Origin: Nannocystis bainbridge | Lineage (GTDB): Bacteria; Myxococcota_A; Polyangia; Nannocystales; Nannocystaceae | Reading direction: 5' to 3' | NCBI RefSeq assembly: GCF_028368995.1 | Contig: NZ_JAQNDL010000001.1 | Span: 2,112,001 to 2,176,000, forward strand | DNA: 64,000 nt | In this document: positions 4,983 to 60,828 of the stretch, piece by piece | Layout of the letters: each line of letters opens with the position of its first letter | Numbering within the stretch: position 1 is the first letter of the stretch | Position numbers and translations under genes: made by a program | The notes under the pieces: generated by a model | What the model was told of the DNA's origin: nothing | Database searches by the model: none | What the model saw: only the letters and a program-made list of their open reading frames with translations

Positions 4983-6596
4983 TCAGGGCACCGTCACCAG
5001 CACGCCCTGACTCTCGACGTTGTGTTTGCCGGCGGCGGTGATCGCCCATGTCCCCGGGGACAGGTCGATGCTCGTCGTCTCGGCCGGGACGACGCGGTCG
5101 ATCACGTACTCCTGGCCCGCCTGGGCGTAGACCACCCAGGCGCGCAGGCTGTCCGGGGCCGCGTGCGACAGCGACGCCTGCGCCCCGGTCAGCGTCACCG
5201 TCGGCGGCGCCACGACCTCGTCGGTCAGCGCCGCGATCGGCGGCGTCAGGGCCGGGGTCGCGTAGAACTCGGCCTTGAACGCGTCGGTGACCCCGAGCAG
5301 GTTGTCCTGCAGCGGCGCGATCTGGAAGAAGATGTTGCCCTGCGAGCCCGACTCCGCGTATTCGCGGCTGAGCACGATCTCCTGCTTGAACTCCTCGAGC
5401 GACCACTTGTCCTCGGTGCCGAGCTTGCTGAGGTAGTTGCCGGCGAAGATGTAGCGCCCGCCGGTGGTGATGCTCGACCACCACGCGATCAGCTTGCCGT
5501 AGGCCTGGGCCGCCTGGGTCGTCGGCCAGTACAGCTGCGGCGCCAGGTAATCGAGCCAGCCCTCTTGCATCCACAGCAGCGGATCGGCGTAGAGGCCCTC
5601 GTATTGATCGAAGCCGACGATGCCCTCGGGGATCCCTGGCCGGTAGATGCCGAACGGGCTGATGCCATAGCGGACGTGCGGCGCCAGGTCGGCGACCGTG
5701 ATGCCGACCGCCTCGACCATCGCGTTGACGTTGTCGCGCCGCCAGTCGGCCCGCGACAGCTGCCCGCCGCTGCCCTGATAGGCCTCCCACGTCTTGTCGT
5801 CGGGGAAGTCTTCGCCGTCGACCGGGTACGGATAGAAGTAATCGTCGAAGTGGACGCCGTCGATGTCGTAGCGGCCCACGAGATCAGCGACGACCGCCAG
5901 CAATAGGTCCTGCACCTCCTTCGCGCCCGGGTCCATCCAAAGGAACGTCGAGTACGCGTAGGCGTACTGCGGCAGCAGGGACGCGACGTGATTGGCGGCC
6001 AGCGGGTGGTTGGCGTTGGCCTTGGCGCGGTACGGATTGAGCCAGGCGTGGACCTCGATGCCGCGGGCGTGGCCCTCGTCGACCAGGAATTGCAGCGGGT
6101 CGACCCCGGGATCCTCCCCTTGTTCGCCTGTGAGGTAACGGCTCCACGGCTCCAGGTCCGACGAATAGAGCGCGTCGCATTCCGGCCTGACCTGGAACAC
6201 CACGGCATTGAGGCCCGCTGCCTGCACGGTATCGAGGATCGCCAGCAGCTCGTCCTGCATCGCCGTCGCCGACAGCCCGGTCGCGCTGGGGAAGTTGATG
6301 TTCGAGACCGTCGCCACCCACACCGCCCGGAACTCGCGGGTATGGCTGACCACCACCAGCTCCTGCGGCTCGCCGCCGGTCGTGCCGCTGCTGGTGCTCT
6401 CGTCGCCGCTGGTCGGCTCGTTCGTCGTCGGGTCGCCGGTCGCTGGCACATCGGAGGTCGTCGCGGTGCCCGGCGAATCGGTCGTGTTCGCGCTCGACGT
6501 CGCGGCTTCGGTGGTCGAGGAAGGCTCTTCGCCGCAGCCGGAGAGCGCCGCCAAGCCGACCACAAATGACAATCCTGCTGAGCGAAACAGCGCCAT
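4983..6596 (-). CDS. GHL10 / YddW(DigH)-like glycoside hydrolase lipoprotein
   Basis: Lipobox LSGC, Thr/Ser linker, EFRAVWVATVSNI, FQVRP..DALY, HAWLNPYR, YDIDGVHFDDYFYPY. Confidence 0.88.
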   Translation of the reverse strand: MALFRSAGLSFVVGLAALSGCGEEPSSTTEAATSSANTTDSPGTATTSDVPATGDPTTNEPTSGDESTSSGTTGGEPQELVVVSHTREFRAVWVATVSNINFPSATGLSATAMQDELLAILDTVQAAGLNAVVFQVRPECDALYSSDLEPWSRYLTGEQGEDPGVDPLQFLVDEGHARGIEVHAWLNPYRAKANANHPLAANHVASLLPQYAYAYSTFLWMDPGAKEVQDLLLAVVADLVGRYDIDGVHFDDYFYPYPVDGEDFPDDKTWEAYQGSGGQLSRADWRRDNVNAMVEAVGITVADLAPHVRYGISPFGIYRPGIPEGIVGFDQYEGLYADPLLWMQEGWLDYLAPQLYWPTTQAAQAYGKLIAWWSSITTGGRYIFAGNYLSKLGTEDKWSLEEFKQEIVLSREYAESGSQGNIFFQIAPLQDNLLGVTDAFKAEFYATPALTPPIAALTDEVVAPPTVTLTGAQASLSHAAPDSLRAWVVYAQAGQEYVIDRVVPAETTSIDLSPGTWAITAAGKHNVESQGVLVTVP

Positions 6597-7266: not shown

Positions 7267-9102
7267 TCAGAACAGCCCGTGAAGCGGTCCGCTCGGGGCC
7301 GCCCATTCGAGGACTCGGCGGGTCACCGCCGGGTCCTCGATCAATTGCGGGGCGTGGTGCGGCTTGCGGCGGGCGTCGATCACCAGCGCGCCCTCGCAGC
7401 CCCAGTGCTTGTGGACCGTGCGCGCCGCGACCCCGTCGATGTCGACCGCCGGGTTCATGCGGGTGAACGTCGCCCACAAGAAGTTGTTGAGCGTGCGCGC
7501 CGCGAACTCGCTGTCGTCGACCAGCACCACCAGCGGGAAGCCGGCCATCGGATCGTTCGGCGCCAGCGCGGCGCAGAACCGCTGCAGCGCCCCGTCGCCG
7601 GGCACCGTGCACTCCGGGCTCGTCACCGCCAGCACCCCGGGCATGCACACGCGCGGGTCCGAGAAGCCCGCCGGCAGCCGCAGCTCGGCCGGCACCTCCG
7701 TCGCCAGCGCGCGGCGGGGCGCCCCGACGGCCGCGATCACCACCTTGCTGCCGACATTGAGCCCGCCGCCCGAGTAGTCGAGCGTGTCGATGGTCGTCTC
7801 GGTGTGGAAATGCAGGTCGCGGCGCCAGTCGACGCGCTCGAGGACATGTCCGAAGAAACCTGTCACATCGTGCAGGTCGAGGTTCGGCGCGTCGTCGGCC
7901 GCGGCGATGATGAGCACTTTGGCCAGCGACATCTGGCCCTGGCCGAGGATCGCGCTGGCCTGCGTCAGCAGCTCGGCGGGGCGGTCGCGCGGGGCGTAGG
8001 GCGTGTAGCGCTCGCTGCCGAGGGCCAGCAGCAGCGGGTGGACCCCGGCCGCGTCGACCGCATGGACCGCCTGCACCCCGGGGATCACCGCCGGGATCGC
8101 CGGCCCCGTGATCTCGTGGATGATCGCGCCGAATTGCGTGTCCTCTTGCGGCGGCCGCCCGACCACCGTAAACGGCCAGATCGCGTCCTCGCGGGCGTAC
8201 ACCTTGTCGACCCGCAGCACCGGGAAATCGTGCGTCAGGCTGTAGTAGCCGAGGTGGTCGCCGAACGGCCCCTCGGGCAGGCGCAGCTCGGGGTCGACGG
8301 TGCCGCAGATGACGAAGTCGGCCTCGCCGGCGAACGGCAGCGCACCTGGCCTTTGGACCATGCGCACCCGTCGCCCCGCCAGCGCCCCCGCGAACGCCAG
8401 CTCCGGCAGCCCCTCGGGCAGGGGCATCACCGCCGCCAGCGCCATCGCTGGCGGGCCGCCGACGAAGATGTTGACGCGCAGCGGCTCGCCCTTGCGGATC
8501 GCCGCCGCGTGGTGGACCCCGATCCCGCGGTGGATCTGGTAGTGCAGCCCGATCTGGCGGTCCTGCGCGTAGCGGTTGCCGCCCAGCTGGACGCGGTACA
8601 TCCCGAGGTTGCTCTTCATCCACCCGGGCTTGTCGGGGTCCTCGCTGTAGACCTGCGGCAGGGTGATGAACGGCCCGCCGTCGCGCGGCCACGAGACCTG
8701 CTGCGGCAGGTCGGAGATCCGGATCTCGCGCGCCATGACGGGCCCGGAGCCGACGAACTTCGGCCGCGCGTGCCAGCCCGTGCGGAGCAGGCCCAGGTAG
8801 CGCCACGGCCGACGCATCACCGCCCCGGGGTCGCCGCGCAGGGCCACCAATTGCTTCACCTGCGCCAGCGTGTCGCGAAAAATGAACTGTGTGCGGGCGG
8901 CCGTCCCGAACAGGTTGCTCACCATCGGGAATCCGCTGCCCTTGACCCGCGTGAACAGCAGCGCCGGACCGCCGGCCGCGAAGACGCGGCGCTGGATCTC
9001 CGCCGCCTCGAGGTTCGGGTCCACCTCGACATCGACGCGCGCGAGGTGACCGTGCCGCTCGAGGTCGGTCACACACGCGCGCAGCGATCGATAAGCGCTC
9101 AT
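7267..9102 (-). CDS. UbiD-family (prFMN-dependent) decarboxylase
   Basis: DGGPFITLP, NLGMYR, EGPFGDHLGYY, GRPPQED, IDTLDYS motifs. Confidence 0.9.
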   Translation of the reverse strand: MSAYRSLRACVTDLERHGHLARVDVEVDPNLEAAEIQRRVFAAGGPALLFTRVKGSGFPMVSNLFGTAARTQFIFRDTLAQVKQLVALRGDPGAVMRRPWRYLGLLRTGWHARPKFVGSGPVMAREIRISDLPQQVSWPRDGGPFITLPQVYSEDPDKPGWMKSNLGMYRVQLGGNRYAQDRQIGLHYQIHRGIGVHHAAAIRKGEPLRVNIFVGGPPAMALAAVMPLPEGLPELAFAGALAGRRVRMVQRPGALPFAGEADFVICGTVDPELRLPEGPFGDHLGYYSLTHDFPVLRVDKVYAREDAIWPFTVVGRPPQEDTQFGAIIHEITGPAIPAVIPGVQAVHAVDAAGVHPLLLALGSERYTPYAPRDRPAELLTQASAILGQGQMSLAKVLIIAAADDAPNLDLHDVTGFFGHVLERVDWRRDLHFHTETTIDTLDYSGGGLNVGSKVVIAAVGAPRRALATEVPAELRLPAGFSDPRVCMPGVLAVTSPECTVPGDGALQRFCAALAPNDPMAGFPLVVLVDDSEFAARTLNNFLWATFTRMNPAVDIDGVAARTVHKHWGCEGALVIDARRKPHHAPQLIEDPAVTRRVLEWAAPSGPLHGLF

Positions 9103-22828: not shown

Positions 22829-23536
22829 ATGCGAATCGCCGCGCTCAGCGACTTCCACATCGGCGCGCGCGCCGGCATGGACGAGTTTCGCCACGACGAG
22901 GCCGCCTTCCTCGAGAGGCTCGCCCGCGTCGTCGGCGAGCACGACCGCGTCGTCCTCGTCGGCGACATCTGGCAGACCGACCACGACCTGTTCCCCGGCC
23001 CGCGCGCCGCGGCCCGCCAGCTCCACCTCGCGCGCCGCCGGCTGCCACGGCTGACCCGCGCCCTCGACCGCCTCGACTACGTCCACGGCAACCACGACTT
23101 CATCGCCCGCGACGAGCTCGGCGCCGCCGCCGAGCTGCAGATCGACGCTGACGGGTGCCGGGTCCTGTTTCGCCACGGTCACCAGCACGACCCCGTGTTC
23201 GCCCGCGCCTACCGGGCCGCCCGCGCCGCCACGTGGTTCACCGGCCGCCTGCGCCGCGCCGGCCTCGGCCCGCTCGCCCACTACTTCGAGCAGCAGGACG
23301 TCGCCATCAAGCACCGCCGCTTCGGCCACGCCGCCGGCCCCTACGCCGCCGCCGCCCGGGCCCTCATGCGCGAGCGCGGCGCCGATCTCGTGGTCATGGG
23401 CCACACCCACGTCGCCCACGTCCATTACCTGTCCGAAGGGACAGTCGTCAACACCGGCACCTGCTCGGCCGGCCGCTTCACCGTCGTCACCATCGACACC
23501 GCCGCCCGCGCCGCCAGCATCACCCACGATCGGTGA
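22829..23536 (+). CDS. Metallophosphoesterase (LpxH / UDP-2,3-diacylglucosamine hydrolase-like)
   Basis: SDFH, VGD, GNHD, HGH, MGHTH, NTG motifs. Confidence 0.8.
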   Translation: MRIAALSDFHIGARAGMDEFRHDEAAFLERLARVVGEHDRVVLVGDIWQTDHDLFPGPRAAARQLHLARRRLPRLTRALDRLDYVHGNHDFIARDELGAAAELQIDADGCRVLFRHGHQHDPVFARAYRAARAATWFTGRLRRAGLGPLAHYFEQQDVAIKHRRFGHAAGPYAAAARALMRERGADLVVMGHTHVAHVHYLSEGTVVNTGTCSAGRFTVVTIDTAARAASITHDR

Positions 23537-23562
23537 CCTGTCCCCGGGGACATCCTCTCCTG
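23535..23562. repeat. 14-bp motif pair
   Basis: Contains the perfect palindrome TGTCCCCGGGGACA. Confidence 0.65.
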
Positions 23563-30245: not shown

Positions 30246-30254
30246 GCGCCGAAG

Positions 30255-30324
30255 GACATGTCCCCGCGGACATGTCCCTCGTCCCATGCTCTCGAGGACA
30301 TGCCGCCAGGGACATGTCCCCTCT
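30255..30324. repeat. 14-bp-period motif array (5 units) between convergent genes
   Basis: gacatgtccccgcg|gacatgtccctcgt|cccatgctctcgag|gacatgccgccagg|gacatgtcccctct. Confidence 0.88.
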
Positions 30325-30332
30325 TCAAAAAT

Positions 30333-31625
30333 TCAGTGCGCGCCCTTCTTCGGCCGCAGCGGCTTGCCCTCGGACTGGAACTCGTTCCAGGTCGCCGGCT
30401 TGAACCCGTTGTCGACCGCCGCCATGGTGATGCAGTCGGGCACCGGGCACACGATCTGGCACAGGTTGCAGCCGACGCACTCCGACTCGTCGACCACCGG
30501 CACGCGGGTCCCCGCCGCTTTGGGCGCCGGGTGGATGCACTGGTGGGCGCCGTCGTGGCAGGCGACCACGCAGGCGTGGCAACCGATGCACTTGTCGGGG
30601 TCGATCTTGGCCACCGTCTCGTAGTTGAGGTCGAGCTCGCCCCACTCCGAGAACTGCGGCACCGCCTTGCCGCGCATCTCCTCGATCGTCGAGAACCCGT
30701 GCGAGCGCATGTACTCGGTCAGGCCCTCGATCATATCGCCGACCACGCGGTAGCCGCGGAGCATGACCTCGGTGCACACCTGGACCGACGAGCAGCCGAG
30801 CAGGATGAACTCGACCGCGTCGCGCCAGTTGGCGACCCCGCCGATGCCGCTGATCGGCAGGCCGAAGTCGGGGTCGCGGGCCAGGCTGCCGATCATGTGC
30901 ATGGCGATCGGCTTGACCGCCGCGCCGCAGTAGCCGCCGTTGGTCGACAGGCCGGCGACGCGCGGCTCGGGCACGAAGCGGTCGATGTCGACGGCGATGA
31001 GGCTCTTGATCGTGTTGATGAGCGAGACCCCGTGGGCCCCGCCGCGCTTGGCCGCCAGGCCGTGCGGGTTGATGTGGTCGACGTTGGGCGTCAGCTTGAC
31101 CAGCACGGGGATGGTCGAGAACTCTACGGCCCAGCTGGTGATCTTCTCGTTGAGCGCCGGCTCCTGGCCGACCGCCGAGCCCATGCCGCGCTCGCACATC
31201 CCGTGCGGGCAGCCGAAGTTGAGCTCGAGCCCGTCGGCCCCGGCGTCGATGGAGCGCTTGATCATGTCGCGCCACTCGTCGCGCGTCTCGACCATCAGCG
31301 ACACGATCACGCCGTGCTTGGGGTAGCGCTTCTTGACCTCGGCGATCTCGCGGAAGTTGACCTCGAGCGGGCGGTCGGTGATGAGCTCGATGTTGTTGAA
31401 GCCGATCGCGCGGGTGCCCTTGAAGTGGAGCGCGCCGAACCGCGACGACACGTTCTGGATCGGCGTGCCGAGCGTCTTCCACACCGCCCCGCCCCAGCCG
31501 GCGTCGAACGCCCGCATGATCTGCCCGCCCGAGTTGGCGGGCGGCGCCGAGGCGAGCCAGAACGGGTTCGGCGTGACGATCCCGCCGGTGTTCGAGGTCA
31601 GATCGACAGATGTCCCGAAGGCCAT
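30333..31625 (-). CDS. preA: NAD-dependent dihydropyrimidine dehydrogenase subunit PreA
   Basis: NPFWLASAPP, NNIELI, ELNFGCPHGM, KLTPN, SLINT, two C-terminal 4Fe-4S motifs. Confidence 0.95.
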   Translation of the reverse strand: MAFGTSVDLTSNTGGIVTPNPFWLASAPPANSGGQIMRAFDAGWGGAVWKTLGTPIQNVSSRFGALHFKGTRAIGFNNIELITDRPLEVNFREIAEVKKRYPKHGVIVSLMVETRDEWRDMIKRSIDAGADGLELNFGCPHGMCERGMGSAVGQEPALNEKITSWAVEFSTIPVLVKLTPNVDHINPHGLAAKRGGAHGVSLINTIKSLIAVDIDRFVPEPRVAGLSTNGGYCGAAVKPIAMHMIGSLARDPDFGLPISGIGGVANWRDAVEFILLGCSSVQVCTEVMLRGYRVVGDMIEGLTEYMRSHGFSTIEEMRGKAVPQFSEWGELDLNYETVAKIDPDKCIGCHACVVACHDGAHQCIHPAPKAAGTRVPVVDESECVGCNLCQIVCPVPDCITMAAVDNGFKPATWNEFQSEGKPLRPKKGAH

Positions 31626-34276: not shown

Positions 34277-34555
34277 ATGGGCCGGATCGCCGCTCTCGTC
34301 CTCACCCTGGCCGCCGCCTGCGCCGGCGAGCCGGAGGTTCGTACCACTCGCTTCGCCGTCGGCGGCATGGTCTGCCACTCGTGCGAGGAGGGCATCTGCG
34401 CGGCCGTGCGCAAGCTCGACGGCGTCGAGGCCTGCACGGCCGACCACGCCGCCGGCGCCGCCGAGGTCCGCCACGATCCGGCCCGCGCCCCGGCCGCCGC
34501 GATCGCCGAGACGATCACCAAGCTCGGCTACACCGCGACGCCGGCCGCTCCGTGA
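34277..34555 (+). CDS. Heavy-metal-associated (HMA) domain lipoprotein
   Basis: LAAAC lipobox; GMVCHSC metal-binding motif; ..LGY. Confidence 0.8.
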   Translation: MGRIAALVLTLAAACAGEPEVRTTRFAVGGMVCHSCEEGICAAVRKLDGVEACTADHAAGAAEVRHDPARAPAAAIAETITKLGYTATPAAP

Positions 34556-34651
34556 CCTGTCCTCCGGGGCATGTCCTCCGGGACATGCCCTTCGGGACCT
34601 GCCCTTTCGCACCTGTCCTTACACACCTGGCCTTCACGACATGTCCTTGCC
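34554..34651. repeat. 14-bp-period motif array (7 units); last unit overlaps the next start codon
   Basis: gacctgtcctccgg|ggcatgtcctccgg|gacatgcccttcgg|gacctgccctttcg|cacctgtccttaca|cacctggccttcac|gacatgtccttgcc. Confidence 0.9.
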
Positions 34652-39753: not shown

Positions 39754-39865
39754 CATCTGCCCCTTCGGACCTGCCCCTTCCGACATGCCCATCGGGACAT
39801 GCCCCTTCGGACCTGTCCCATCGGACCTTTTCTATCGGACATGTCCTCGCTGAACTGCCCTCACG
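39754..39865. repeat. 14-bp-period motif array (8 units), the longest in the window
   Basis: catctgccccttcg|gacctgccccttcc|gacatgcccatcgg|gacatgccccttcg|gacctgtcccatcg|gaccttttctatcg|gacatgtcctcgct|gaactgccctcacg. Confidence 0.9.
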
Positions 39866-52286: not shown

Positions 52287-54530
52287 ATGCGCTCCTTCGG
52301 CTGGCTTCACTTCACGGACCTCCACCAGGGCCTCGACGCCCAGGGCTGGCTGTGGCCGGGCGTCCGCGAGGTCCTGCTGGCCGACCTCGAGAAGCTGCAC
52401 GCCCGCTGCGGCCCGTGGGACCTGGTCCTGTTCAGCGGCGACCTGACCCAGCGGGGCAGCGCCGCCGAGTTCGCGCGCCTCAACCAAACCCTGCAGCAGC
52501 TGTGGGATCACCTCCGCGCCCTCGGCTCGACCCCCGCGCTGGTGACCGTCCCCGGCAACCACGACCTCATCCGCCCCGACCCGCGCCGCCCCGAGTCGCT
52601 GGTGCTCGGCCGCTGGGACACCTATCCCGAAGTTCAGGTCGAGTTCTGGCGCGACGCCAGCTCGCCCTACCGCGCCCTCGTCGACCAGGCGTTCGCGCCG
52701 TACAGCGACTGGCTCAAGAGCCACCCGTTCGCCGGCCTGCAGCTGCAGCGCGGCATGCTGCCCGGCGACTGCTCGGCGGTGCTGGCCAAGGACGGGCTCA
52801 AGCTCGGCGTCGTCGGCCTCAACAGCGCCTTCTTGCAGCTCGGCGATGGCGACTACACCGGCAAGCTCGCGCTCGACGTCCGCCAGCTGCACGCGGCCTG
52901 CGGCGGCGACGGCCCGGCGTGGGTCAAGGAGTGCGACTTCGCGTTGCTGATGACGCACCACCCGCCGACCTGGCTGCAGGCCAAGGCCCGCGACGAGTTG
53001 GTCGCCGAGATCGCCCCGCCCGGGCGGTTCGTCGCTCACGTCTACGGCCACATGCACGAGCACGCGAGCAGCGTGATCGCCATCGGCGGCGCGCAGGGTC
53101 GGCGCGAGCTCCAGGGCAGCTCGCTGTTCGGCCTCGAGGTCTACGGCGGCAAGGTCGATCGCCGCCACGGCTACACCGCCGCGCGCATCACCGTCGACGA
53201 CAACAACGAGGCGACCTTGCGGCTGTGGCCGCGCGTCGCCAAGAAGCACGCCGCCGGTCACTGGCGCGTCGTCCAGGACCTCGACGCCTTCGAGCTCGGC
53301 GACGATCAGGGCACCCGGCCCGAGCCGCTGCCGCCGCCGCGTCGGCGCACGCCCCCGCCTCCGCCCCCGCCCCCGGTCAACCCGGCCAACCTGGTCGCCA
53401 CCGGACCTGTCCTTTCGGCCAGCACGTCCGGATCGCACCCTTCGATCTCGCAGACCGCCCCGATCCCGCTCGGCGTGATCACCTCGCTGTCGGGCGGCGC
53501 GCCCGGCGACTCGGGCATCTTCTACTCGTCGATCGCCGCCCGCGTGCAGCCACCGGGCGCGCCCTACAACATCAACTGGCACGTCCACCGCGCCGAGGAG
53601 GAGCGCACCGCGCTCAACTACCTCGATCAGCCGGGCGCGCCGGTCGTGCTGTGGGGCCCCGACAAGTTCGGCAAGACCTGGATGTCGCAGTTCTTGACCG
53701 ACATGGTCTACCAGGCCGACGGCGGCGCATGCCGGGTCGTCGCCATCAACCTCGACACCTTCGACTACGAGTCGCGCAGCGACTACGGCAACTTCATCCG
53801 CGAGTTCGCGTTCCAGATCGTCGGCTCGATCGGCGGCCCCGAGGACTGGGTCCCGACCTTGTGGAAGTCGCCGGGCAGCGTCAACCAGAAGCTCGGCCGG
53901 CTGATGCGGGACAACGTGCTGCCGCTGGCGAGCACGCGGGTGATCCTCGCGCTCGACCGCGTCGACGCCGTGTGGGGCCTGCCGTTCAAGGACGACTGGT
54001 TCGGCATGCTGCGCGCGTGGGCCGAGGATCCGCGGCTGGAGAAGCTGCGGCTCGTGCTCGGCATCAGCACCACGCCGCGGCGGTTGATCGAGCGGACCAC
54101 GCAGTCGCCGTTCAACCTGAGCCCGCCGATCGTGCTCGGTGACCTCACGCGCGAGCAGGTCGAGAACCTGTCGCAGCTGTACGGGCTCGACTGGACGCCG
54201 CAGGACTTCGGCGCGCTGATGAGCCTCGTCGGCGGGCACCCCTACCTCGTACGCCTGGCCATGCACAGGGCCAACCTCGCCGGCGGGCTGTCGGCGCGCG
54301 AACTGCTGGCCGAGCCGTCGAACCTGTTCGACGACTTCCTCCAGCGCTACGCGCGGCGCCTCCACCTCCACCCCGAGATGATGGCCGGCGTGAAGCGGCT
54401 GCGCAGCGACGCGCTGGCGGAGCTCGACTCCGACGCCTCGGCCGCGCTCGAGAGCAGCGGCATCGCCGTCGAGGAGAAGGTCGGCTTCTACCGCCTGCGC
54501 TATCGGCTGTACGAGCGGCTGCGGCCATGA
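52287..54530 (+). CDS. Calcineurin-like metallophosphoesterase fused via a Pro-rich linker to an AAA_35-type ATPase
   Basis: TDLH, SGDL, PGNHD, HHP, GHMH; Walker A WGPDKFGKT; Walker B VILALDRVD; SPFN; GGHPYLVR. Confidence 0.85.
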   Translation: MRSFGWLHFTDLHQGLDAQGWLWPGVREVLLADLEKLHARCGPWDLVLFSGDLTQRGSAAEFARLNQTLQQLWDHLRALGSTPALVTVPGNHDLIRPDPRRPESLVLGRWDTYPEVQVEFWRDASSPYRALVDQAFAPYSDWLKSHPFAGLQLQRGMLPGDCSAVLAKDGLKLGVVGLNSAFLQLGDGDYTGKLALDVRQLHAACGGDGPAWVKECDFALLMTHHPPTWLQAKARDELVAEIAPPGRFVAHVYGHMHEHASSVIAIGGAQGRRELQGSSLFGLEVYGGKVDRRHGYTAARITVDDNNEATLRLWPRVAKKHAAGHWRVVQDLDAFELGDDQGTRPEPLPPPRRRTPPPPPPPPVNPANLVATGPVLSASTSGSHPSISQTAPIPLGVITSLSGGAPGDSGIFYSSIAARVQPPGAPYNINWHVHRAEEERTALNYLDQPGAPVVLWGPDKFGKTWMSQFLTDMVYQADGGACRVVAINLDTFDYESRSDYGNFIREFAFQIVGSIGGPEDWVPTLWKSPGSVNQKLGRLMRDNVLPLASTRVILALDRVDAVWGLPFKDDWFGMLRAWAEDPRLEKLRLVLGISTTPRRLIERTTQSPFNLSPPIVLGDLTREQVENLSQLYGLDWTPQDFGALMSLVGGHPYLVRLAMHRANLAGGLSARELLAEPSNLFDDFLQRYARRLHLHPEMMAGVKRLRSDALAELDSDASAALESSGIAVEEKVGFYRLRYRLYERLRP

Positions 54531-57500
54531 CCCCGCCACATCCGAGCTCGGGCGCGGGTCTCCACGGCGCCCAGTTCCAGGTCGGCGGCGCGGTCCAGGC
54601 CGGCGCCTTTTACATCGAGCGCAAGGCCGACCGCGAGCTGCTCAGCGCGCTGATGCGGGGCGAGTTCTGCTACATCCTCGCCCCGCGGCAGATCGGCAAG
54701 ACCAGCCTGCGCGTGCGCGCGGCCAAGCGGCTGCAGGGCGGCGGCGTCCGCTGCGTCAGCATCGACCTCACCAACATCGGCTCGACGCTGGTCTCGATCG
54801 ACGACTGGTACTTCAGCATCGCCCTCGAGATCGCCGAGGCGATGGGCCTGCCGAGCCCCGAGCTGTTCTGGAGCACCCACCAGAACCTCACCCCCGTCCA
54901 CCGCTGGTACCGCTTCCTCCGCAACGAGCTGCTCGACCGCACCGAGGCGCCGATCGTCGTCTTCATCGACGAGGTCGAGTCGGTGCAGGCGCTGCCGTTC
55001 AGCGCCGACGACTTCTTCGCCTCGATCCGCTCGGCCTTCAACCTGCGGGCCGAGGACCTGGCCTACGAGCGCCTCACCTTCTGCCTCCTCGGCGTCGCCG
55101 CCCCCGCCGACCTGATCTCCAACTCGGTCCGCACCCCGTTCAACATCGGCCGCGAGATCCGCCTCGAGGACTTCTCGCGCGGCGAGCTCGACGCCTTCCG
55201 GCCTGGCCTCGAGGGCCTGGGCGGCAGCCCCGACGCCCTGCTCGACGCCGTGTACGCCTGGACATCTGGCCATCCGTACATGTCCCAAAGGCTATGCGAC
55301 GACCTGGTCCGGCGCGGCCCGGTCAGCGACAAGACCGAGGCCGAGCGGGTCGACGACTCGGCCTACACCCTGTTCCTGCGCAACGGCCGGACCGCCGACG
55401 CCAACCTCGCCTACGCCGAGAAGCGGCTCAACGCCAACGCCTCGCGGGAGCGCTCGCGCGACCTGCTCGACCTCTACCGCCGGCTCCTCAGCGGCGAGCC
55501 GGCGCCGGCCGAGCCGAACAACCCGCTGCAGATCGAGCTGCGCCTGACGGGGCTCGCGGCCGAGGCGCGCGGCGAGCAGGGCGACATCCACCTGCAGGTC
55601 CGCAACCTCGTGTTCGCCGAGGTCTACGACCACAAGTGGCTGCGCGAGCGAGAGAAGGAGCAGCGGCTGGCCGAGTTCGTGGCCCGCTGGGAGGGCAAGG
55701 GCCGCCAGGACGACTACCTGCTGCGCGGCACGGCGCTCGAGGACGCGCTGGCGTGGTCGCACGGGCGCAGCGACCTGACCCTCGGCGACCACGAGTTCCT
55801 GCTCGCCGGCCTCAACTTCGCCCGCCGCGAGGCCGAGGCGCGCCACCGGCTCGAGGAGGCCGCGCGCATGCAGGAACAGGCCCGCCTGGCCGCGCTCGAG
55901 GAGCAGCGCAAGGCCGAGCGCGAGCGCTACCGGGCCGACATCGAGCGAGAGCGGCGCGAGCGGGCCGAGGAGGGCGCCGTCTCGCAGCGGCGCACCATCT
56001 CGATCCTCACCGGCACCGTCGCCACCCTCGGCCTCCTGCTGGCCCTCACCGTGTGGCAGTTCGTGGTCGCCGAGCAGAGCAAGGACCAGCTGTCGCGGAT
56101 CTCCGAGCGTCGCAACGAGGACGCCCGGCTCGACCGCCTCGGCGCCGACGCCCTCCTCTACGCCCAGCAGCCCGGCAAGGAGCGCGACGCCCTGCTGACC
56201 GCGATCAAGGCCGCCGCCGACGCGCTCGCCCGCGACGGCGAGGTCCCGCCGCGCGTCATGCAGGGCCTGGCCGCCGCGGTCGCCACCCCGGTCCAGCGGC
56301 CGCTGGTGCTGCGCCACGCCGAGGCCGTGCACGGGGCCCACTTCTCGCACGACGGCACCCGCGTGCTCACGGCCAGCAAGGACGGCACCGCCCACCTGTG
56401 GGACGCCGTCTCGGGCAAGACGATCCGCGTGCTCGAGCACGCCGCGCCTGTCCTTTCAGCCAGCTTCTCGCGCGACGACACCCGCATCTTCAGCGTCGGC
56501 GCCGACAAGAGCGCGCGGCTGTGGAACGCCGCCACCGGCGACAACCTCGAGGAGTACAAGAACGTCGCCGTCCCGCCGCAGCGGATGATCGCCGGCCTGG
56601 CCGACAACGGCTACAGCGTCTACTTCCTCGGCGTCGACCGCGGCGCCCACCTGGTCGACATCCGCGGCAACAAGGCGCGCGACCTGCCGCGCACCCTCAG
56701 CGGCAACGTCACCGCGATCGCCCTGGCCGACGGCGAGCCGCTGGCGGCCACCGGCGGCAGCGACGGCGTCGTGCGCCTGTGGGACCTCGACACCGGCGAG
56801 CTCCAGATCGAGCTGAAGCGGCACAAGGGCAACGTCGCCGCGGTGCTGCTGTCGCCGCTCGGCGGCCGGCTCGTCAGCGTCGGCGAGGACGGCGACGCCC
56901 GCGTGTGGACCACCGCCGGCGCCGCGGTCGCGACCCTCCAGCACGGCGATCCTGTCCTCGGGGCCAGCTTCTCCGCCAGCGGCGACCGCTTGCTGACGTG
57001 GAGCCTGGCGCGGGCGGTCGTGTGGTCGAGCGCCGGCAAGCAGCTGGCCAGCCTCACCGACCCGCGCGAGCTGCTCAAGCAGGCCGCCTTCTCGCCCGAC
57101 GACCGCCGCGTCGCCACCGTCGGCGCCGGCACCGGCGGCGGCGCGGGCACGGCGGTCAAGCTGTGGGACCCGGTCAAGGGCGAGGTCGCGGCCACCCTCA
57201 CCGGTCACACGGGACAGGTCCTTTCGGTCAGGTTCTCGCTCGACGCCTCGCGCGTGCTGACGACCAGCGAGGACAACACCGCCCGGCTGTGGAACAGCGC
57301 CGGCGGCCAGCCGCTGGCCACCCTCGAGGGTCACACGGCGCCCGTGCTGGCCGCCGAGTTCTCGCCCGACGGCGCCCGGATCCTCACCGTCGGCGGCGAC
57401 AACACCGCGCGGATCTGGGACGGCTCGCTCAACAACGCCGTGCCGACCCTCAAGGGCCACGGCGCCTCGGTGCGGCTGGCCCGCTTCTCGCCCGACGGCA

Positions 57501-58561
57501 GCCGGATCGTCACCACCAGCGACGACAAGACCGCGCGTCTGTGGGACGTCGTCAGCACCCGCAACATCCGCACCCTCGAGGGCCACGGCGGCCCCGTCGT
57601 CGCCGCCGTGTTCGCCGGCGACGGCTCCGGCCGGCTGCTCACCTGGGCCGAGGAGGACTCCAACCTGCGCCTGTGGGACGCCAGCAACGGCGACGAAGTC
57701 GCCGTGCTCGGCCACGCCGGACATGTCCTCGGGGCCAGCTTCTCCCGCGACGGCGCGCGCATCGTCTCGGCCGGCGCCGACGACACCCTGCGCCAGTGGG
57801 ACGCCACCACCGGCGCGGTCGTCGGCGAGCCGTGGCAGGGCACCCGCGGCCAGCAGACCGTCGCCGGCTTCGCCCCCGGCGGCCGCTACGTCGTGCTCGC
57901 CAGCCGCGACAGCAACACCGCCCAGCTGATCGACGTCGAGGCCCAGCGCTTCATCACCGACCTCGTCGGTCACAGCGCCCCGGTCGAGGGCGCCGTGTTC
58001 TCGCCCGACGGCGAGACCGTCGTCACCCTCAGCGCCGACCACACCGCCAAGCTGTGGGTCGCCCGTTACGGCAGCGAGATCGCCACCCTCGACCCTGCCG
58101 CCGGCGCCATCGCCTCGGCCGCGTTCTCGCGCGACGGCGGCCGGCTCGTCCTCGCCACCGCGCGCGACGCCTGGGTGTGGTCGCTCACCGGCCCCGACGA
58201 CCGCCCGCAGGTGCTCGCCACCCTGCTCGGCCACTCCGCCTCGCTGCTCCACGCCACCTTCTCCGTCAACGGTGGGCGCATCGTCACCGCCTCGTCCGAC
58301 AACACCGCCAAGCTGTGGGTCGCCCCCGTCGACTCCTCCAACTACGACTTACTGGCGACGCTGCACGGCCACGCCGCCGCCGTCAACTACGCCGAGTTCT
58401 CGCCCGACGGCCGCAACATCGTCACCGCCGGCCGCGACGGCCGCATCAAGCTGTTCCCGACCTCGGTCGAGGACCTGCTGCGCAAGGCCTGCGACGAGCT
58501 CCGCCCGCACCGCGACGACTACGAGCAGGTCGAGGCCGACTGCCGCCTCGCCGGCGGCTGA
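54527..58561 (+). CDS. AAA_35-type ATPase, coiled coil, TM helix and about 15 WD40 repeats
   Basis: YIERKAD, LAPRQIGKTSL, VVFIDEVE, TPFNIG, WTSGHPYM.Q; YLLRG..L..A..W; TM ILTGTVATLGLLLALTVW; repeated GH...V..A.FSPDG.R..T.S.D.TA.LW; ATGA overlap with upstream gene. Confidence 0.9.
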   Translation: MTPPHPSSGAGLHGAQFQVGGAVQAGAFYIERKADRELLSALMRGEFCYILAPRQIGKTSLRVRAAKRLQGGGVRCVSIDLTNIGSTLVSIDDWYFSIALEIAEAMGLPSPELFWSTHQNLTPVHRWYRFLRNELLDRTEAPIVVFIDEVESVQALPFSADDFFASIRSAFNLRAEDLAYERLTFCLLGVAAPADLISNSVRTPFNIGREIRLEDFSRGELDAFRPGLEGLGGSPDALLDAVYAWTSGHPYMSQRLCDDLVRRGPVSDKTEAERVDDSAYTLFLRNGRTADANLAYAEKRLNANASRERSRDLLDLYRRLLSGEPAPAEPNNPLQIELRLTGLAAEARGEQGDIHLQVRNLVFAEVYDHKWLREREKEQRLAEFVARWEGKGRQDDYLLRGTALEDALAWSHGRSDLTLGDHEFLLAGLNFARREAEARHRLEEAARMQEQARLAALEEQRKAERERYRADIERERRERAEEGAVSQRRTISILTGTVATLGLLLALTVWQFVVAEQSKDQLSRISERRNEDARLDRLGADALLYAQQPGKERDALLTAIKAAADALARDGEVPPRVMQGLAAAVATPVQRPLVLRHAEAVHGAHFSHDGTRVLTASKDGTAHLWDAVSGKTIRVLEHAAPVLSASFSRDDTRIFSVGADKSARLWNAATGDNLEEYKNVAVPPQRMIAGLADNGYSVYFLGVDRGAHLVDIRGNKARDLPRTLSGNVTAIALADGEPLAATGGSDGVVRLWDLDTGELQIELKRHKGNVAAVLLSPLGGRLVSVGEDGDARVWTTAGAAVATLQHGDPVLGASFSASGDRLLTWSLARAVVWSSAGKQLASLTDPRELLKQAAFSPDDRRVATVGAGTGGGAGTAVKLWDPVKGEVAATLTGHTGQVLSVRFSLDASRVLTTSEDNTARLWNSAGGQPLATLEGHTAPVLAAEFSPDGARILTVGGDNTARIWDGSLNNAVPTLKGHGASVRLARFSPDGSRIVTTSDDKTARLWDVVSTRNIRTLEGHGGPVVAAVFAGDGSGRLLTWAEEDSNLRLWDASNGDEVAVLGHAGHVLGASFSRDGARIVSAGADDTLRQWDATTGAVVGEPWQGTRGQQTVAGFAPGGRYVVLASRDSNTAQLIDVEAQRFITDLVGHSAPVEGAVFSPDGETVVTLSADHTAKLWVARYGSEIATLDPAAGAIASAAFSRDGGRLVLATARDAWVWSLTGPDDRPQVLATLLGHSASLLHATFSVNGGRIVTASSDNTAKLWVAPVDSSNYDLLATLHGHAAAVNYAEFSPDGRNIVTAGRDGRIKLFPTSVEDLLRKACDELRPHRDDYEQVEADCRLAGG

Positions 58562-58564
58562 AAT

Positions 58565-58637
58565 CACATGTCCTCGCGGACAGGTCGGTGCCCGCGCGAC
58601 GGCGCGAGTGGCCTGTCCCATCGGCCATGTGCGCAGC
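58565..58637. repeat. Two 14-bp motif pairs
   Basis: cacatgtcctcgcg|gacaggtcggtgcc ... ggcctgtcccatcg|gccatgtgcgcagc. Confidence 0.6.
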
Positions 58638-58902
58638 GCCTGGACCCCGCGCCACGCCGCCGACGAGCCCGCGACGATCGTCGCGCGGGACCGACGACAC
58701 CACCAGCGCGCGCTCCTGCGGCCCGCAGCGGAGCGGGCGCTCCACGACATCCTCCCGCGGCTCTGCCTGCGGGTCCGGGCCACCTCGACGGCGCGCCGCG
58801 GCCCGACCTCACCGCGCTGACAGCTCCCCGCGCCGCCTCCGTGAGCGCCGCGCAGGCCGCGGCGGTGGCATCAGCGCGCGTTCTGGGCTATCCCCGGGGC
58901 GC

Positions 58903-60642
58903 ATGCGCCCTCGCCCGCTCGCCCTCGCCGCCCTCGCGCTGACGCTCGCCGGCGGCTGCCTCAAGATCCCGGCCGAGCCCAAGTCCCCGGAGACAGGTCC
59001 CGAAGGACAGGTCGCGACCCTGGCCTGGCCCGGCGCCGCGATCGACAAGCTGTACCGCCCCGGCGAGGTCCGCGTGTACACGATGATGCAGTCCGGCAAG
59101 CCGATCGGCACCTCGTGGGGCCGCTACGAGGGCCCGGTCGACGGCGAACCCGGCCACTTCCGCTTCGCCACCCGCATCGAGCTGCGCCCGCCCGGCCGCG
59201 ACGGCAAGCCGGCCGAGCCGCTGCGCAGCTCCGGCGAGATCGTCGTCGACGCCCGCGGCGACCTGATCCGCGGCTTCGAGCGCAGCAACGCCGCCGAGCT
59301 GGTGTTCGAGCGCAAGGGCGACGCGCTCCACTTCAACTCCGGCCGCGAACGCGACGAGATCACGTACCGCAGCGGCGACGCGTTCATGGCGTTCTCGGCG
59401 ATCTTCCACGAGGAGCTGATGTTCGGCCTGCGCCGCCTCGAGGCCGGCGAGCTGGCGTGGCGCCTGGTCAGCCTGTCGGGCTCGATGCCGACCGAGTGGA
59501 CGGCGACGCTGACGATCCCCGACCCGGCGGCGCCCGGCCGGGCCACGGTCAAGACCAACCTCGGCGAGACGGTCACGCTGCGCGACGGCCGGATCGAGAA
59601 GGTCCAGATCGAGGCCGACGACGTCGAGATCCAGGTGCCGGTGCAGCCGCCGACCTGGCCCGAGTGGCAGATCGCCGGGCCACCTGTCCTCAAGTACAGC
59701 TCGCTCCCGGGCGCCCGATTCACCCGCCGCGAGGTCGAGCTGCCCGGACGGCCCGGCGAGCCCGCGCTGGCCGGCGAGGTCCTGCTGCCGCCCGGTCCGG
59801 GCCCGTTCCCCGCGGCGCTGCTGCTGCCCGGCACCGGCCAGCAGGACCGCTTCGGCTTCGCCGGCCCGCCGCCGGTCGACCTCGGCAGCCACACGATCAC
59901 CGACGCGCTCGCCGAGGCCGGCTTCGCGGTCCTCCGCTTCGACGAGCGCGGCTTCGGCAGCAGCGCCGACGGCCCGATCTCCTACCTCGGCCAGCTCGAG
60001 GACGCCCGCCGCGCGCTGCGGACCCTGCTGGTCCAGGACGAGGTCGACCCCGACCGCGTGGTCCTCGTCGGCCACGGCGAGGGCGGCTGGAAGGCGCTGA
60101 CGCTGGCCGCCGAGGACCCGAGCGTCAAGGCGGTGGCGCTGCTGGCCACGCCCGGCCGCCCGTACGAGCAGATCCTGCGGGCGCAGGGCGAGGCGGCCCT
60201 GCAAGCGGTGCCGCCCCAGCTCCGCGACGACGCCCGCAAGACCCAGAACAAGACGCTGCAAGCGCTGAAGACCGGCCACGGGGTGCCGCCGGAGCTGGCG
60301 GCGCAGGCGCTGTGGGTGCGGGAGATCCTTCAAGTCTCGCCGGAGGCGCTGATCGCCGGCAGCGAGGCGCCGCTGTGGATCGCGCAGGGCAACAAGGACT
60401 TCGAGGTCGACCCGAACCGCGACCCCCAAGAGCTGGTGAAGCTGGCCAAGCGCCGCAAACGCAAGGCCGAGCTGCGCTCGTTCGCCGACCTCGACCACCT
60501 TTTTAAACCCGAGCCCGAGAACTCCAACCCGGCCCGCTACCTCGACGCCGCCCGCACCGTCGACCACGCGTTCCTCGGCCAGCTTACGACCTGGCTGCAA
60601 GGCCAGATCAAGGCCGCGCCCGCCAAACCGCGCGGCAATTGA
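58903..60642 (+). CDS. Lipoprotein with C-terminal alpha/beta-hydrolase fold lacking the nucleophilic Ser
   Basis: LAGGC lipobox; PGTGQQDR, LRFDERG.G.S, VGHGEGG, QG.KDFEV, LDHLF. Confidence 0.8.
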   Translation: MRPRPLALAALALTLAGGCLKIPAEPKSPETGPEGQVATLAWPGAAIDKLYRPGEVRVYTMMQSGKPIGTSWGRYEGPVDGEPGHFRFATRIELRPPGRDGKPAEPLRSSGEIVVDARGDLIRGFERSNAAELVFERKGDALHFNSGRERDEITYRSGDAFMAFSAIFHEELMFGLRRLEAGELAWRLVSLSGSMPTEWTATLTIPDPAAPGRATVKTNLGETVTLRDGRIEKVQIEADDVEIQVPVQPPTWPEWQIAGPPVLKYSSLPGARFTRREVELPGRPGEPALAGEVLLPPGPGPFPAALLLPGTGQQDRFGFAGPPPVDLGSHTITDALAEAGFAVLRFDERGFGSSADGPISYLGQLEDARRALRTLLVQDEVDPDRVVLVGHGEGGWKALTLAAEDPSVKAVALLATPGRPYEQILRAQGEAALQAVPPQLRDDARKTQNKTLQALKTGHGVPPELAAQALWVREILQVSPEALIAGSEAPLWIAQGNKDFEVDPNRDPQELVKLAKRRKRKAELRSFADLDHLFKPEPENSNPARYLDAARTVDHAFLGQLTTWLQGQIKAAPAKPRGN

Positions 60643-60744: not shown

Positions 60745-60828
60745 AGCATGTCCCCTTTGACATGCACTCGTGGACATGCCCTCGCGGACATGTCCCTTCG
60801 CGCATGCCCTTCAGGCCATGTTTTTTTA
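60745..60828. repeat. 14-bp-period motif array (6 units) between convergent genes
   Basis: agcatgtccccttt|gacatgcactcgtg|gacatgccctcgcg|gacatgtcccttcg|cgcatgcccttcag|gccatgttttttta. Confidence 0.88.

Follow-up and report, generated by a model that had tools for sequence, protein, structure and literature searches.

TGTCC-N4-GGACA, an interrupted palindrome iterated within and between the genes of Nannocystis

TGTCC-N4-GGACA is a 14-bp interrupted palindrome (5+4+5) with 1987 exact copies in the genome of a bacterium that, judged from its DNA, is a Nannocystis, a myxobacterium. It was studied from a 64,000-nucleotide stretch of this genome (C1:2112001-2176000, hereafter the window), in three genes of which an initial annotation had noticed runs of A/T-ending codons at copies of the motif. 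The palindrome is present in large excess within coding sequences (CDSs), and substitutions in its ten arm bases are far rarer than at synonymous sites nearby. It is probably a DNA word specific to the Nannocystis lineage and highly iterated there, read as a duplex by a putative two-fold-symmetric factor; we infer the existence and nature of this factor, as well as selection or drive as the force that maintains the word. The genome comprises 11.05 Mb in 5 contigs with 71.5% GC, and the orthologs of a window gene in N. pusilla, N. exedens, N. punicea, N. radixulma and N. sp. RBIL2 show 88-91% protein identity.

The gap spectrum of TGTCC followed by GGACA has one single peak, at N4 with 1987 occurrences, all other gaps from 0 to 17 giving 0-19, and the pattern read backwards occurs 3 times. 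It was this spectrum that exposed the motif, which had been masked in a maximal-order Markov ranking of k-mers since its sub-words are enriched too. In the opposite order, GGACA-N0/14/28-TGTCC is found 956, 638, and 275 times genome-wide, and arm pairs in the same orientation peak at gaps 9, 23, and 37, from which it follows that units often succeed one another in tandem every 14 bp. The spacer of 4 nt varies, leaning to YYRR in the position logo, which lengthens the palindrome, as do the flanks, i.e., (A/G)C(A/C)-TGTCC...GGACA-(T/G)(G/C)(T/C). Copies were scored by their mismatches to the 10 specified bases of TGTCCNNNNGGACA. The density of exact copies is ~0.18/kb genome-wide and 0.651/kb in intergenic DNA, while copies with at most one mismatch number ~6200 and occur on each of the five contigs, at 48-71 per 100 kb. 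Even spacing along the chromosome was not seen, the gaps between copies forming a cluster of lengths under 100 bp and following an approximately exponential distribution otherwise (coefficient of variation 1.53); long-range periodicity of the HIP1 style lies outside this test. The longest arrays, at C3:1054308 and C3:1085844, have 8 units each and belong to sub-variants with the junctions GGACAGGTCC/GGACAGGCCC or GGTCATGYCCC instead of GGACATGTCC, which would indicate sub-families of units. The two-unit pattern was additionally met in 1 contig of a viral-contig collection.

Genes were predicted with a caller of our own, based on codon likelihood and on the GC content of third codon positions (GC3), which yielded 8017 genes and 83.4% coding DNA. 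Of the exact copies, 777 (39%) lie in the predicted CDSs. As a control, synonymous codons were shuffled within each gene, keeping both the protein and the codon usage, and 20 such shuffles gave 23.9±3.9 exact copies (maximum 32), an excess of ~32-fold. Copies with one mismatch are in ~4-fold excess (1758 vs. 422±21), and 14-mers with two mismatches are not enriched (4098 vs. 4633). Neither are reversed patterns of matched composition (2 vs. 2.0 and 1 vs. 1.9 in shuffles). The junction decamer GGACATGTCC occurs 308 times in CDSs, compared to 32 in shuffles, and the 15-base pattern GGACATGTCCNNNNGGACA, which represents one and a half units, occurs 53, 295, and 741 times with 0, 1, and 2 mismatches, compared to 0.5, 7.4, and 56, i.e., it is 13-fold enriched when two or fewer mismatches are allowed. 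The codon-shuffling test that the initial annotation had proposed therefore comes out in favor of a genuine excess. This excess is robust to errors in gene calling: 150 nt or more separate 473 of the 777 exact copies from both gene ends, and each of these is bordered on either side by 50 codons in the same frame with a GC3 >0.85, so miscalled genes cannot explain it.

The same shuffles can be applied to the window. The three genes of the initial annotation (Table 1) contain 6 copies with at most one mismatch, vs. 0.06 expected, and none of 2000 shuffles reaches 6; for the 51 genes that lie wholly within the window the numbers are 18 and 1.75 (0 of 500 shuffles). These values bear on a local artefact, i.e., paralogy or intragenic conversion among WD40 repeats, amino-acid composition or chance. 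Such an explanation could draw on the copies at 56449, 56953, 57217, and 57724, which occupy the equivalent position of four WD40 repeats, on the ~21 nt that 56951 and 57722 have in common, and on the lack of genome-wide enrichment of two-mismatch 14-mers. Nevertheless, it is very improbable, considering that the shuffles preserve protein and codon usage, that the exact copies are hosted by 587 genes of many families, and that distant orthologs use different, ordinary codons at the same WD40 positions. As a general explanation it is refuted; it may still add to the likeness of the two WD40 copies.

Within genes, the word is accommodated at the expense of codon preference. In the WD40 gene, motif-like copies make up 2.8% of the length and contain 13 of the 33 A/T-ending codons. 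When clusters are defined as at least three A/T-ending codons in five, four of the six clusters in the three genes overlap a motif-like copy, and genome-wide 1097 clusters overlap a copy with at most one mismatch, compared to 8-17 in five shuffles. The coincidence of rare-codon runs and motif copies, as originally noticed, is thus a feature of the entire genome. Most rare-codon runs have other causes, however, because only ~10% of the 10,913 clusters overlap a copy. The total itself is twice that in within-gene shuffles (~5,120), and the motif explains ~1,100 of these clusters. The reading frame in which the copies stand is far from random, with 443, 270, and 64 copies in the three frames; in the commonest frame, the arms are read as GTC and GAC, which are preferred codons, and in the rarest frame TGT and GGA are required. 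Moreover, the most codon-biased genes (top GC3 decile) contain 0.129 copies/kb, vs. 0.34-0.39 in the middle deciles. Along the genes, the copies are spread evenly.

How the copies entered the genes can be read from orthologous loci, which were taken from ten congeneric genomes, eight of them aligned. At 55245-55300, the window and five close relatives have ACA TCT GGC CAT CCG TAC ATG TCC CAA AGG CTA, the codons of the units at 55251..55294, where three distant relatives have ACC GCC GGC CAC CCC TAC ATG ACC CAG CGC CTG without any indel and with an almost unchanged protein (A→S, T→S). Likewise, GGA CAT GTC CTC GGG GCC AGC at 57713-57751 corresponds to GGC CCC GTC CTC GCG GCC ACC in distant orthologs. 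The copy at 23430 is exact in four of the five named Nannocystis species, N. exedens having TGCCC, and eight outgroup genomes of other lineages read xxx CC(C/G/A) GAG GGx xxx there, again without an indel. The copy at 53403 is kept in all five close relatives, the three distant ones not being alignable at this place, and at 56449 two distant relatives carry a one-mismatch copy at the same site and the third has none. At a larger scale, motif-length gaps were absent from all 109 CDS copies inspected (53 ascertained in this genome and 56 in N. punicea); a gap of any kind lies within 15 columns of ~20% of the copies, compared to a background of 12%, mostly resembling alignment noise or miscalled arrays. 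Because aligned orthologs have standard G/C-ending codons and the same length and lack motif-length indels, the in-gene copies were not inserted; clustered synonymous and conservative substitutions have written them.

This pattern is hard to reconcile with a mobile element of the REP type (repetitive extragenic palindrome) or of the type of miniature inverted-repeat transposable elements that inserts in frame, like the Rickettsia palindromic elements. The high copy number, the palindromic units and the arrays at gene 3′ ends would suit such an element, but the copies flagged in the three genes and the one at 23430 align to their orthologs without indels, and insertion of a 14-bp unit would shift the reading frame, yet the 473 copies mentioned above have the same frame on both sides. 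The search for a RAYT gene (Y1 transposase, PF01797) gave no match in the genome, which is 90.5% complete, while 6 of 14 reference genomes gave a match in the control search. A mobile origin is accordingly rated as a very slim possibility, and in-gene insertion by such an element is largely refuted by the ortholog alignments.

The conservation of the copies was determined against one relative, N. punicea, over 835.5 kb aligned at 89.5% identity (megablast high-scoring segment pairs within one 1.2-Mb block). Background divergence amounts to 13.2% in non-coding DNA and to 6.8%, 5.3%, and 14.4% at first, second, and third codon positions. Third positions in the arms differ in 4 of 188 cases (2.1%) for the 49 CDS copies ascertained in the present genome and in 13 of 204 (6.4%) for the 53 ascertained in N. 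punicea, compared to 233 of 1443 (16.1%) and 235 of 1554 (15.1%) in the flanks. The spacers behave in the opposite way, with differences at 20 of 53 (37.7%) and 19 of 57 (33%) third positions. Forty of the 49 and 40 of the 53 copies are exact in both genomes, a fraction estimated at ~0.38 from background rates if the arms were unconstrained. Intergenic copies are alike, differing at 14 of 210 and 7 of 180 arm positions and at 27 of 84 and 25 of 72 spacer positions. An individual example is the site just past a stop codon at 23539, which has a copy in the window and in all five named Nannocystis species, with different spacers and with one arm mismatch in N. exedens. The high divergence of the spacer may be the true neutral rate under strong GC3 pressure, or the spacer may be hypermutable. 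Spacer inversions, a sign of cruciform or flip-flop recombination, were not found at any of 87 loci.

The motif copies might also be the neutral by-product of a context-specific repair or mutation bias, such as methylation-directed repair of the very-short-patch type or template switching at quasi-palindromes, in which case the sites are without function. The copies are indeed built from clustered substitutions, the rate of change in the spacer is at least double that of the flanks, and palindromes are natural targets of template-switch correction. However, template switching would perfect any palindrome and not one word, and the spacers show no inversions. The proteins that might be expected are lacking as well: Vsr was found neither in this genome nor in 11 other motif-bearing genomes (3 of Nannocystis, 4 + 4 of two other genera), and C5-methyltransferase (PF00145) was found neither in this genome nor in two further genomes and 4 genomes of one sister genus, N6/N4 methyltransferases not being part of the search. 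Across the family, the presence of C5-methyltransferase does not follow the abundance of the motif. Altogether, a functionless by-product of this kind is considered unlikely.

Several properties of the copies concern the level, DNA or RNA, at which the word acts. Its degeneracy is symmetric between the strands. Single-arm variants are common, and double variants that are still complementary occur at most ~2-3 times as often as the product of the singles predicts, so there is no real covariation between the arms and the half-sites decay independently. On the sense strand of CDSs, variants that keep a G.U wobble are not in excess over their mirror images (293 vs. 359). The independent decay and the lack of G.U tolerance in CDSs thus fit a word at the DNA level. 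The alternative is a purely RNA-level element, consisting of mRNA hairpins that act as terminators, 3′-end stabilizers or processing sites, the copies in CDSs having the same role or being spill-over. The intergenic anatomy speaks for it: arrays with at least one good unit are densest in convergent spacers (4.1 per kb, 52% of these spacers being occupied), followed by tandem (1.6) and divergent ones (0.59), and of the arrays in tandem spacers 1164 are closer to the stop codon upstream and 476 to the start codon downstream, frequently at 20 nt or less from the stop. The predicted folding energies are -5.8 kcal/mol for the 14-nt unit, -11.2 for a 20-nt string with extended arms, and -16.6 for a 24-nt two-unit string (10-bp stem), and in 3′ flanks wobble-keeping variants are slightly more numerous than their mirror images (212 vs. 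173), driven by GGGCA over TGCCC (89 vs. 49; position 3/12), which hints at an RNA-level constraint there. Conversely, the 34-nt context of the motif folds only ~3 kcal/mol better than random intergenic sequence. An intrinsic terminator would combine a stable GC-rich stem with a U-tract; the copies show no T-run in the position logo beyond the adjacent unit, and no Rfam family matched in a scan of the window. The 32-fold excess in CDSs, evenly distributed along genes, the lack of G.U tolerance there, the independent decay of half-sites and the lean of the spacer to YYRR, which extends the palindrome, argue against this alternative, which is improbable as a sole explanation. The initial annotation had likewise disfavored a purely RNA-based hairpin or terminator, a view that is supported here; the intergenic copies are still compatible with an added role of that kind. 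The motif may therefore be regarded as a recognized duplex word with a possible additional role as an RNA hairpin in arrays at gene ends. Many of these arrays begin 0-10 nt past a stop codon (e.g., 23536-23541 and 34553-34560), and the stop TGA in TGACCTGTCC often belongs to a degenerate unit ahead of the array. Among the arrays of tandem spacers, 55 overlap with the end of the gene and 191 begin within 10 nt of it.

The distribution of the motif is narrow. Four Nannocystis genomes contain 1987, 1793, 563, and 333 exact single units (2-5 for control patterns); the ranges are 87-169 and 67-295 for two other genera of the family, 6-20 for a fourth genus, and 0-10, which is background, for thirteen further genera. 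The two-unit pattern is present in 8 of 10 other Nannocystis genomes, in none of 8 genomes of other genera of the family, and in none of 12 genomes of other families of the class. From these counts, the motif is taxonomically restricted, being abundant in Nannocystis, moderate in two sister genera and at background elsewhere. In a metagenome-assembled genome of another genus of the Nannocystaceae, the metallophosphoesterase ortholog has a one-mismatch copy, CCTGACCGCTCGGACA, with TTTTTT behind it, at the same place just past its stop codon; this suggests that the family may also possess an older form of the element that resembles a terminator.

A stretch of ~200 kb with sharp boundaries (C1:1.10-1.30 Mb), outside the window, has 0.10 copies/kb, compared to 0.565 for the genome on average. 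For 20 kb sampled from it, N. punicea and one other close relative gave no match, and the best match in any other congener has 83% identity. Contig 2 carries two paralogous copies of it (~806-826 kb and 1908-1926 kb), which are just as poor in the motif. The stretch is probably an acquired or mobile island present in several copies. Genes that do not align to N. punicea contain 0.151 copies/kb, vs. 0.297 in shared genes. As both the island and the unshared genes are motif-poor, the word accumulates in long-resident DNA. The stretch C1:1100000-1300000, with 5-10-fold fewer copies and a GC content of 0.66-0.70, encodes an SNF2-type helicase beside an Eco57I-like methylase, Ser/Thr kinases, a terpene synthase fusion and an AcrB pump.

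Altogether, these elements are best accommodated by the duplex word proposed above, and the original suggestion that selection or a directed process acts on the DNA motif itself is supported by the excess in CDSs, the conservation of the arms and the independent decay of half-sites; the check at orthologous positions, advised at the same time, revealed copies made by substitution without indels and arms diverging less than neighboring synonymous sites. In this mechanism, near-matches would be improved by ordinary point mutations and kept by a force that is directional and acts throughout the genome, be it selection for the site or a drive linked to its recognition. This force would be balanced against constraints of codon usage and protein sequence, and the balance would yield the runs of A/T-ending codons, the conservative residue changes, the preference for the frame with the cheapest codons and the lower number of copies in the genes with the strongest codon bias. 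In DNA free of coding constraint, mainly just past stop codons, the word would multiply into arrays of period 14, which can fold as hairpins and may also act as REP-like elements or bidirectional terminators. Selection and directional or molecular drive are not separable by these data. Roughly judged, a protein-binding site under selection is a serious possibility that stays short of probable, a drive related to uptake or recombination has a somewhat smaller chance, and repair bias is unlikely as the force. Homologs of ComEC and DprA are present, but they are near-universal and hence uninformative on uptake.

A number of observations weigh against the proposed reading. Firstly, the spacer evolves at least two times faster than its surroundings, both in and between genes, for which the proposed reading offers no explanation. 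Secondly, the conservation of the arms is expected under a strong drive as much as under selection, and the copies were picked as exact in one genome, a choice that, we argue, should not lower the divergence in the other lineage. Thirdly, the intergenic copies are strongly skewed to gene 3′ ends, where the wobble-keeping variants are in excess. Moreover, the gene calls are home-made, so some CDS copies are probably miscalled intergenic arrays. Lastly, local paralogy or intragenic conversion may have contributed to the four copies at the equivalent position of the WD40 repeats.

Short repeated words of comparable abundance have been described in other bacteria. The cyanobacterial HIP1 (GCGATCGC) is reported to be 15- to 300-fold over-represented, conserved in and between open reading frames (ORFs), lineage-restricted and of unknown function (PMC5861425), and another source names two methylases that recognize it (PMC13756078). 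The Nannocystis word too is palindromic and many-fold over-represented in coding and non-coding DNA, with sites conserved beyond the neutral level (2.1% and 6.4% in the arms vs. 16.1% and 15.1% in the flanks, third positions). In contrast to HIP1, a contiguous octamer, it is interrupted by a free spacer; it is also unrelated in sequence, less dense (~0.18 exact copies/kb) and forms tandem arrays of period 14 at gene 3′ ends. HIP1 furthermore has cognate GATC/CGATCG methyltransferases in cyanobacteria, whereas Nannocystis belongs to another phylum and has no PF00145 match in its own genome.

For uptake sequences, one study reports thousands of copies, a third to two-thirds of them in ORFs, in frames that track preferred codons, and a scarcity in genes without homologs in relatives, with accumulation after transfer (PMC2817400). 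The Pasteurellaceae type (uptake signal sequences, USS) and the Neisseriaceae type (DNA uptake sequences, DUS) resemble the Nannocystis word in its 39% share in CDSs, its bias to the frame with preferred codons and its depletion from the island and from unshared genes. They differ in being asymmetric and strand-specific, the Nannocystis word being palindromic, tandem and strand-symmetric. Intergenic copies of DUS sit downstream of genes as inverted structures.

REP units measure 20-40 bp, and GTAG and CGTC tags are named in the source (PMC3733652). Like REPs and bacterial interspersed mosaic elements, the Nannocystis units are short GC-rich palindromes arrayed just past genes, most between convergent genes. 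However, REPs are extragenic, whereas the in-gene copies counted above include 473 in robust coding context, and the 14-bp unit has no GTAG or CGTC head, by our reading of the logo, and no RAYT gene. Rickettsia palindromic elements are in-frame insertions into genes. The likeness lies in a palindromic repeat within protein-coding genes, the difference in the fact that the Nannocystis copies stem from substitutions, without any residues being added. Of the analogs in the initial annotation, HIP1 and uptake sequences were apt and matS/parS a poor fit, because there are thousands of copies genome-wide: matS, parS and NBS sites number in the tens and are regionally confined, compared to ~6200 copies with at most one mismatch. 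HIP1 is the closest analog and uptake sequences the next closest. The interrupted palindrome with a free spacer, the gene-end arrays of period 14, the other phylum and the failure to find an associated gene set the word apart from HIP1, uptake sequences and REP. Literature searches on myxobacteria and Nannocystis repeats, paper supplements being outside their scope, found no description of TGTCC-N4-GGACA, and the motif appears not to have been described before in myxobacteria.

The copies and arrays in the window are listed in Table 1. The strings that were first reported for the three genes are all present there and codon-aligned. Of the further in-gene sites proposed at the time, 5049 is exact, 7842 is a junction decamer, and 29342 and 51526 have one mismatch, as has 51419; the one at 31611 (one mismatch) is only marginally in a gene, because it overlaps a predicted start codon. 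As two-mismatch 14-mers are not enriched genome-wide, the units at 56449, 55267, 55281, and 57203 cannot be called singly by their 14-mer score. The 15-base pattern GGACATGTCCNNNNGGACA, by our reading of the strings, supports the copies at 53403, 57212, 57719, and 58993.

Table 1. Genes of the initial annotation and copies of the palindrome in the window.
Feature	Positions	Details
Exact in-CDS copy TGTCCCCGGGGACA, GHL10-family gene (4983-6563, minus strand)	5049..5062	Identical in N. punicea
In-CDS junction decamer GGACATGTCC	7842..7851	
Exact in-CDS copy CTG TCC GAA GGG ACA (LSEGT), metallophosphoesterase gene	23430..23443	
Exact copy past metallophosphoesterase gene	23539..23552	3 nt past stop codon
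Intergenic array starting GGACATGTCC-ccgc-GGACATGTCC	30254..30314	Downstream of PhoD-like gene; opening 24-mer folds with a 10-bp stem (-16.6 kcal/mol)
Intergenic array	39758..39841	Six period-14 units
Metallophos + AAA_35 gene	52287-54530	748 codons, 29 A/T-ending
GGACC/TGTCC-TTTC-GGCCA in Metallophos + AAA_35 gene	53403..53421	14-mer at 53408, 1 mismatch; rare codons GGA, CCT, CTT
AAA_35 + WD40 gene	54527-58561	STAND-like architecture; 1345 codons, 33 A/T-ending
Three degenerate units in AAA_35 + WD40 gene	55251..55294	55251, 1 mismatch; 55267 and 55281, 2 each
TGTCC-TTTC-AGCCA in CDS, WD40 repeat position	56449..56462	2 mismatches; weak alone
TGTCC-TCGG-GGCCA in CDS	56953..56966	1 mismatch; same WD40 repeat position as 57724; absent from the list of the initial annotation
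GGTCA-CACG-GGACA + GGTCC-TTTC-GGTCA, adjoining, in CDS	57203..57230	Units 57203 and 57217, 2 mismatches each; rare codons GGA, CTT, AGG
GGACA/TGTCC-TCGG-GGCCA in CDS	57719..57737	14-mer at 57724, 1 mismatch
Intergenic copies 3′ of WD40 gene	58569..58627	Exact copy 8 nt past stop codon; 1-mismatch copy at 58614
Alpha/beta hydrolase gene	58903-60642	580 codons, 26 A/T-ending
Two adjoining in-CDS units near alpha/beta-hydrolase N-terminus	58982..59009	58982, 2 mismatches; 58996, 1; rare codons ACA, GGT, GAA, GGA
In-CDS copy, hydrolase gene	59685..59698	1 mismatch
Intergenic array between convergent genes	60749..60818	Five units

The first two of the three genes overlap by 4 nt and both encode an AAA_35 NTPase domain, which is joined via a proline-rich linker to a calcineurin-like phosphoesterase in the upstream gene and to ~14 WD40 repeats in the downstream one. 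By their domain architecture they form a STAND/NLR-like gene pair, for which PADLOC gives weak matches only (PDC-S60, 1.4e-10; HEAT-ARM_XIII, 1e-16). Among public sequencing runs, the window stretch is present only in metagenome-derived contigs.

To our knowledge, few short DNA words are known to persist in genes against codon preference, HIP1, USS/DUS and Chi being the main examples. Each of these exposed a genome-wide DNA transaction, namely uptake, recombination or possibly nucleoid structure. The Nannocystis word unites REP-like arrays at gene ends with in-gene copies of the HIP/USS kind, and its conserved 5-bp arms and fast-evolving 4-bp spacer provide a clear signature and a tractable handle toward the recognizing factor. 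By analogy, it is conceivable, though doubtful at present, that the motif is the recognition word of a 'self-DNA' system in the Nannocystaceae, either the first uptake or recombination specificity sequence of the Myxococcota or a HIP1-like nucleoid-organizing site bound by a symmetric dimer. If so, the pressure on it would suffice to change synonymous and conservative positions across hundreds of genes, and motif density could date horizontally acquired DNA in these genomes. The motif also offers a compositional clock for acquired DNA in Nannocystis. Local runs of rare codons in these genomes, finally, need not mean translational tuning.

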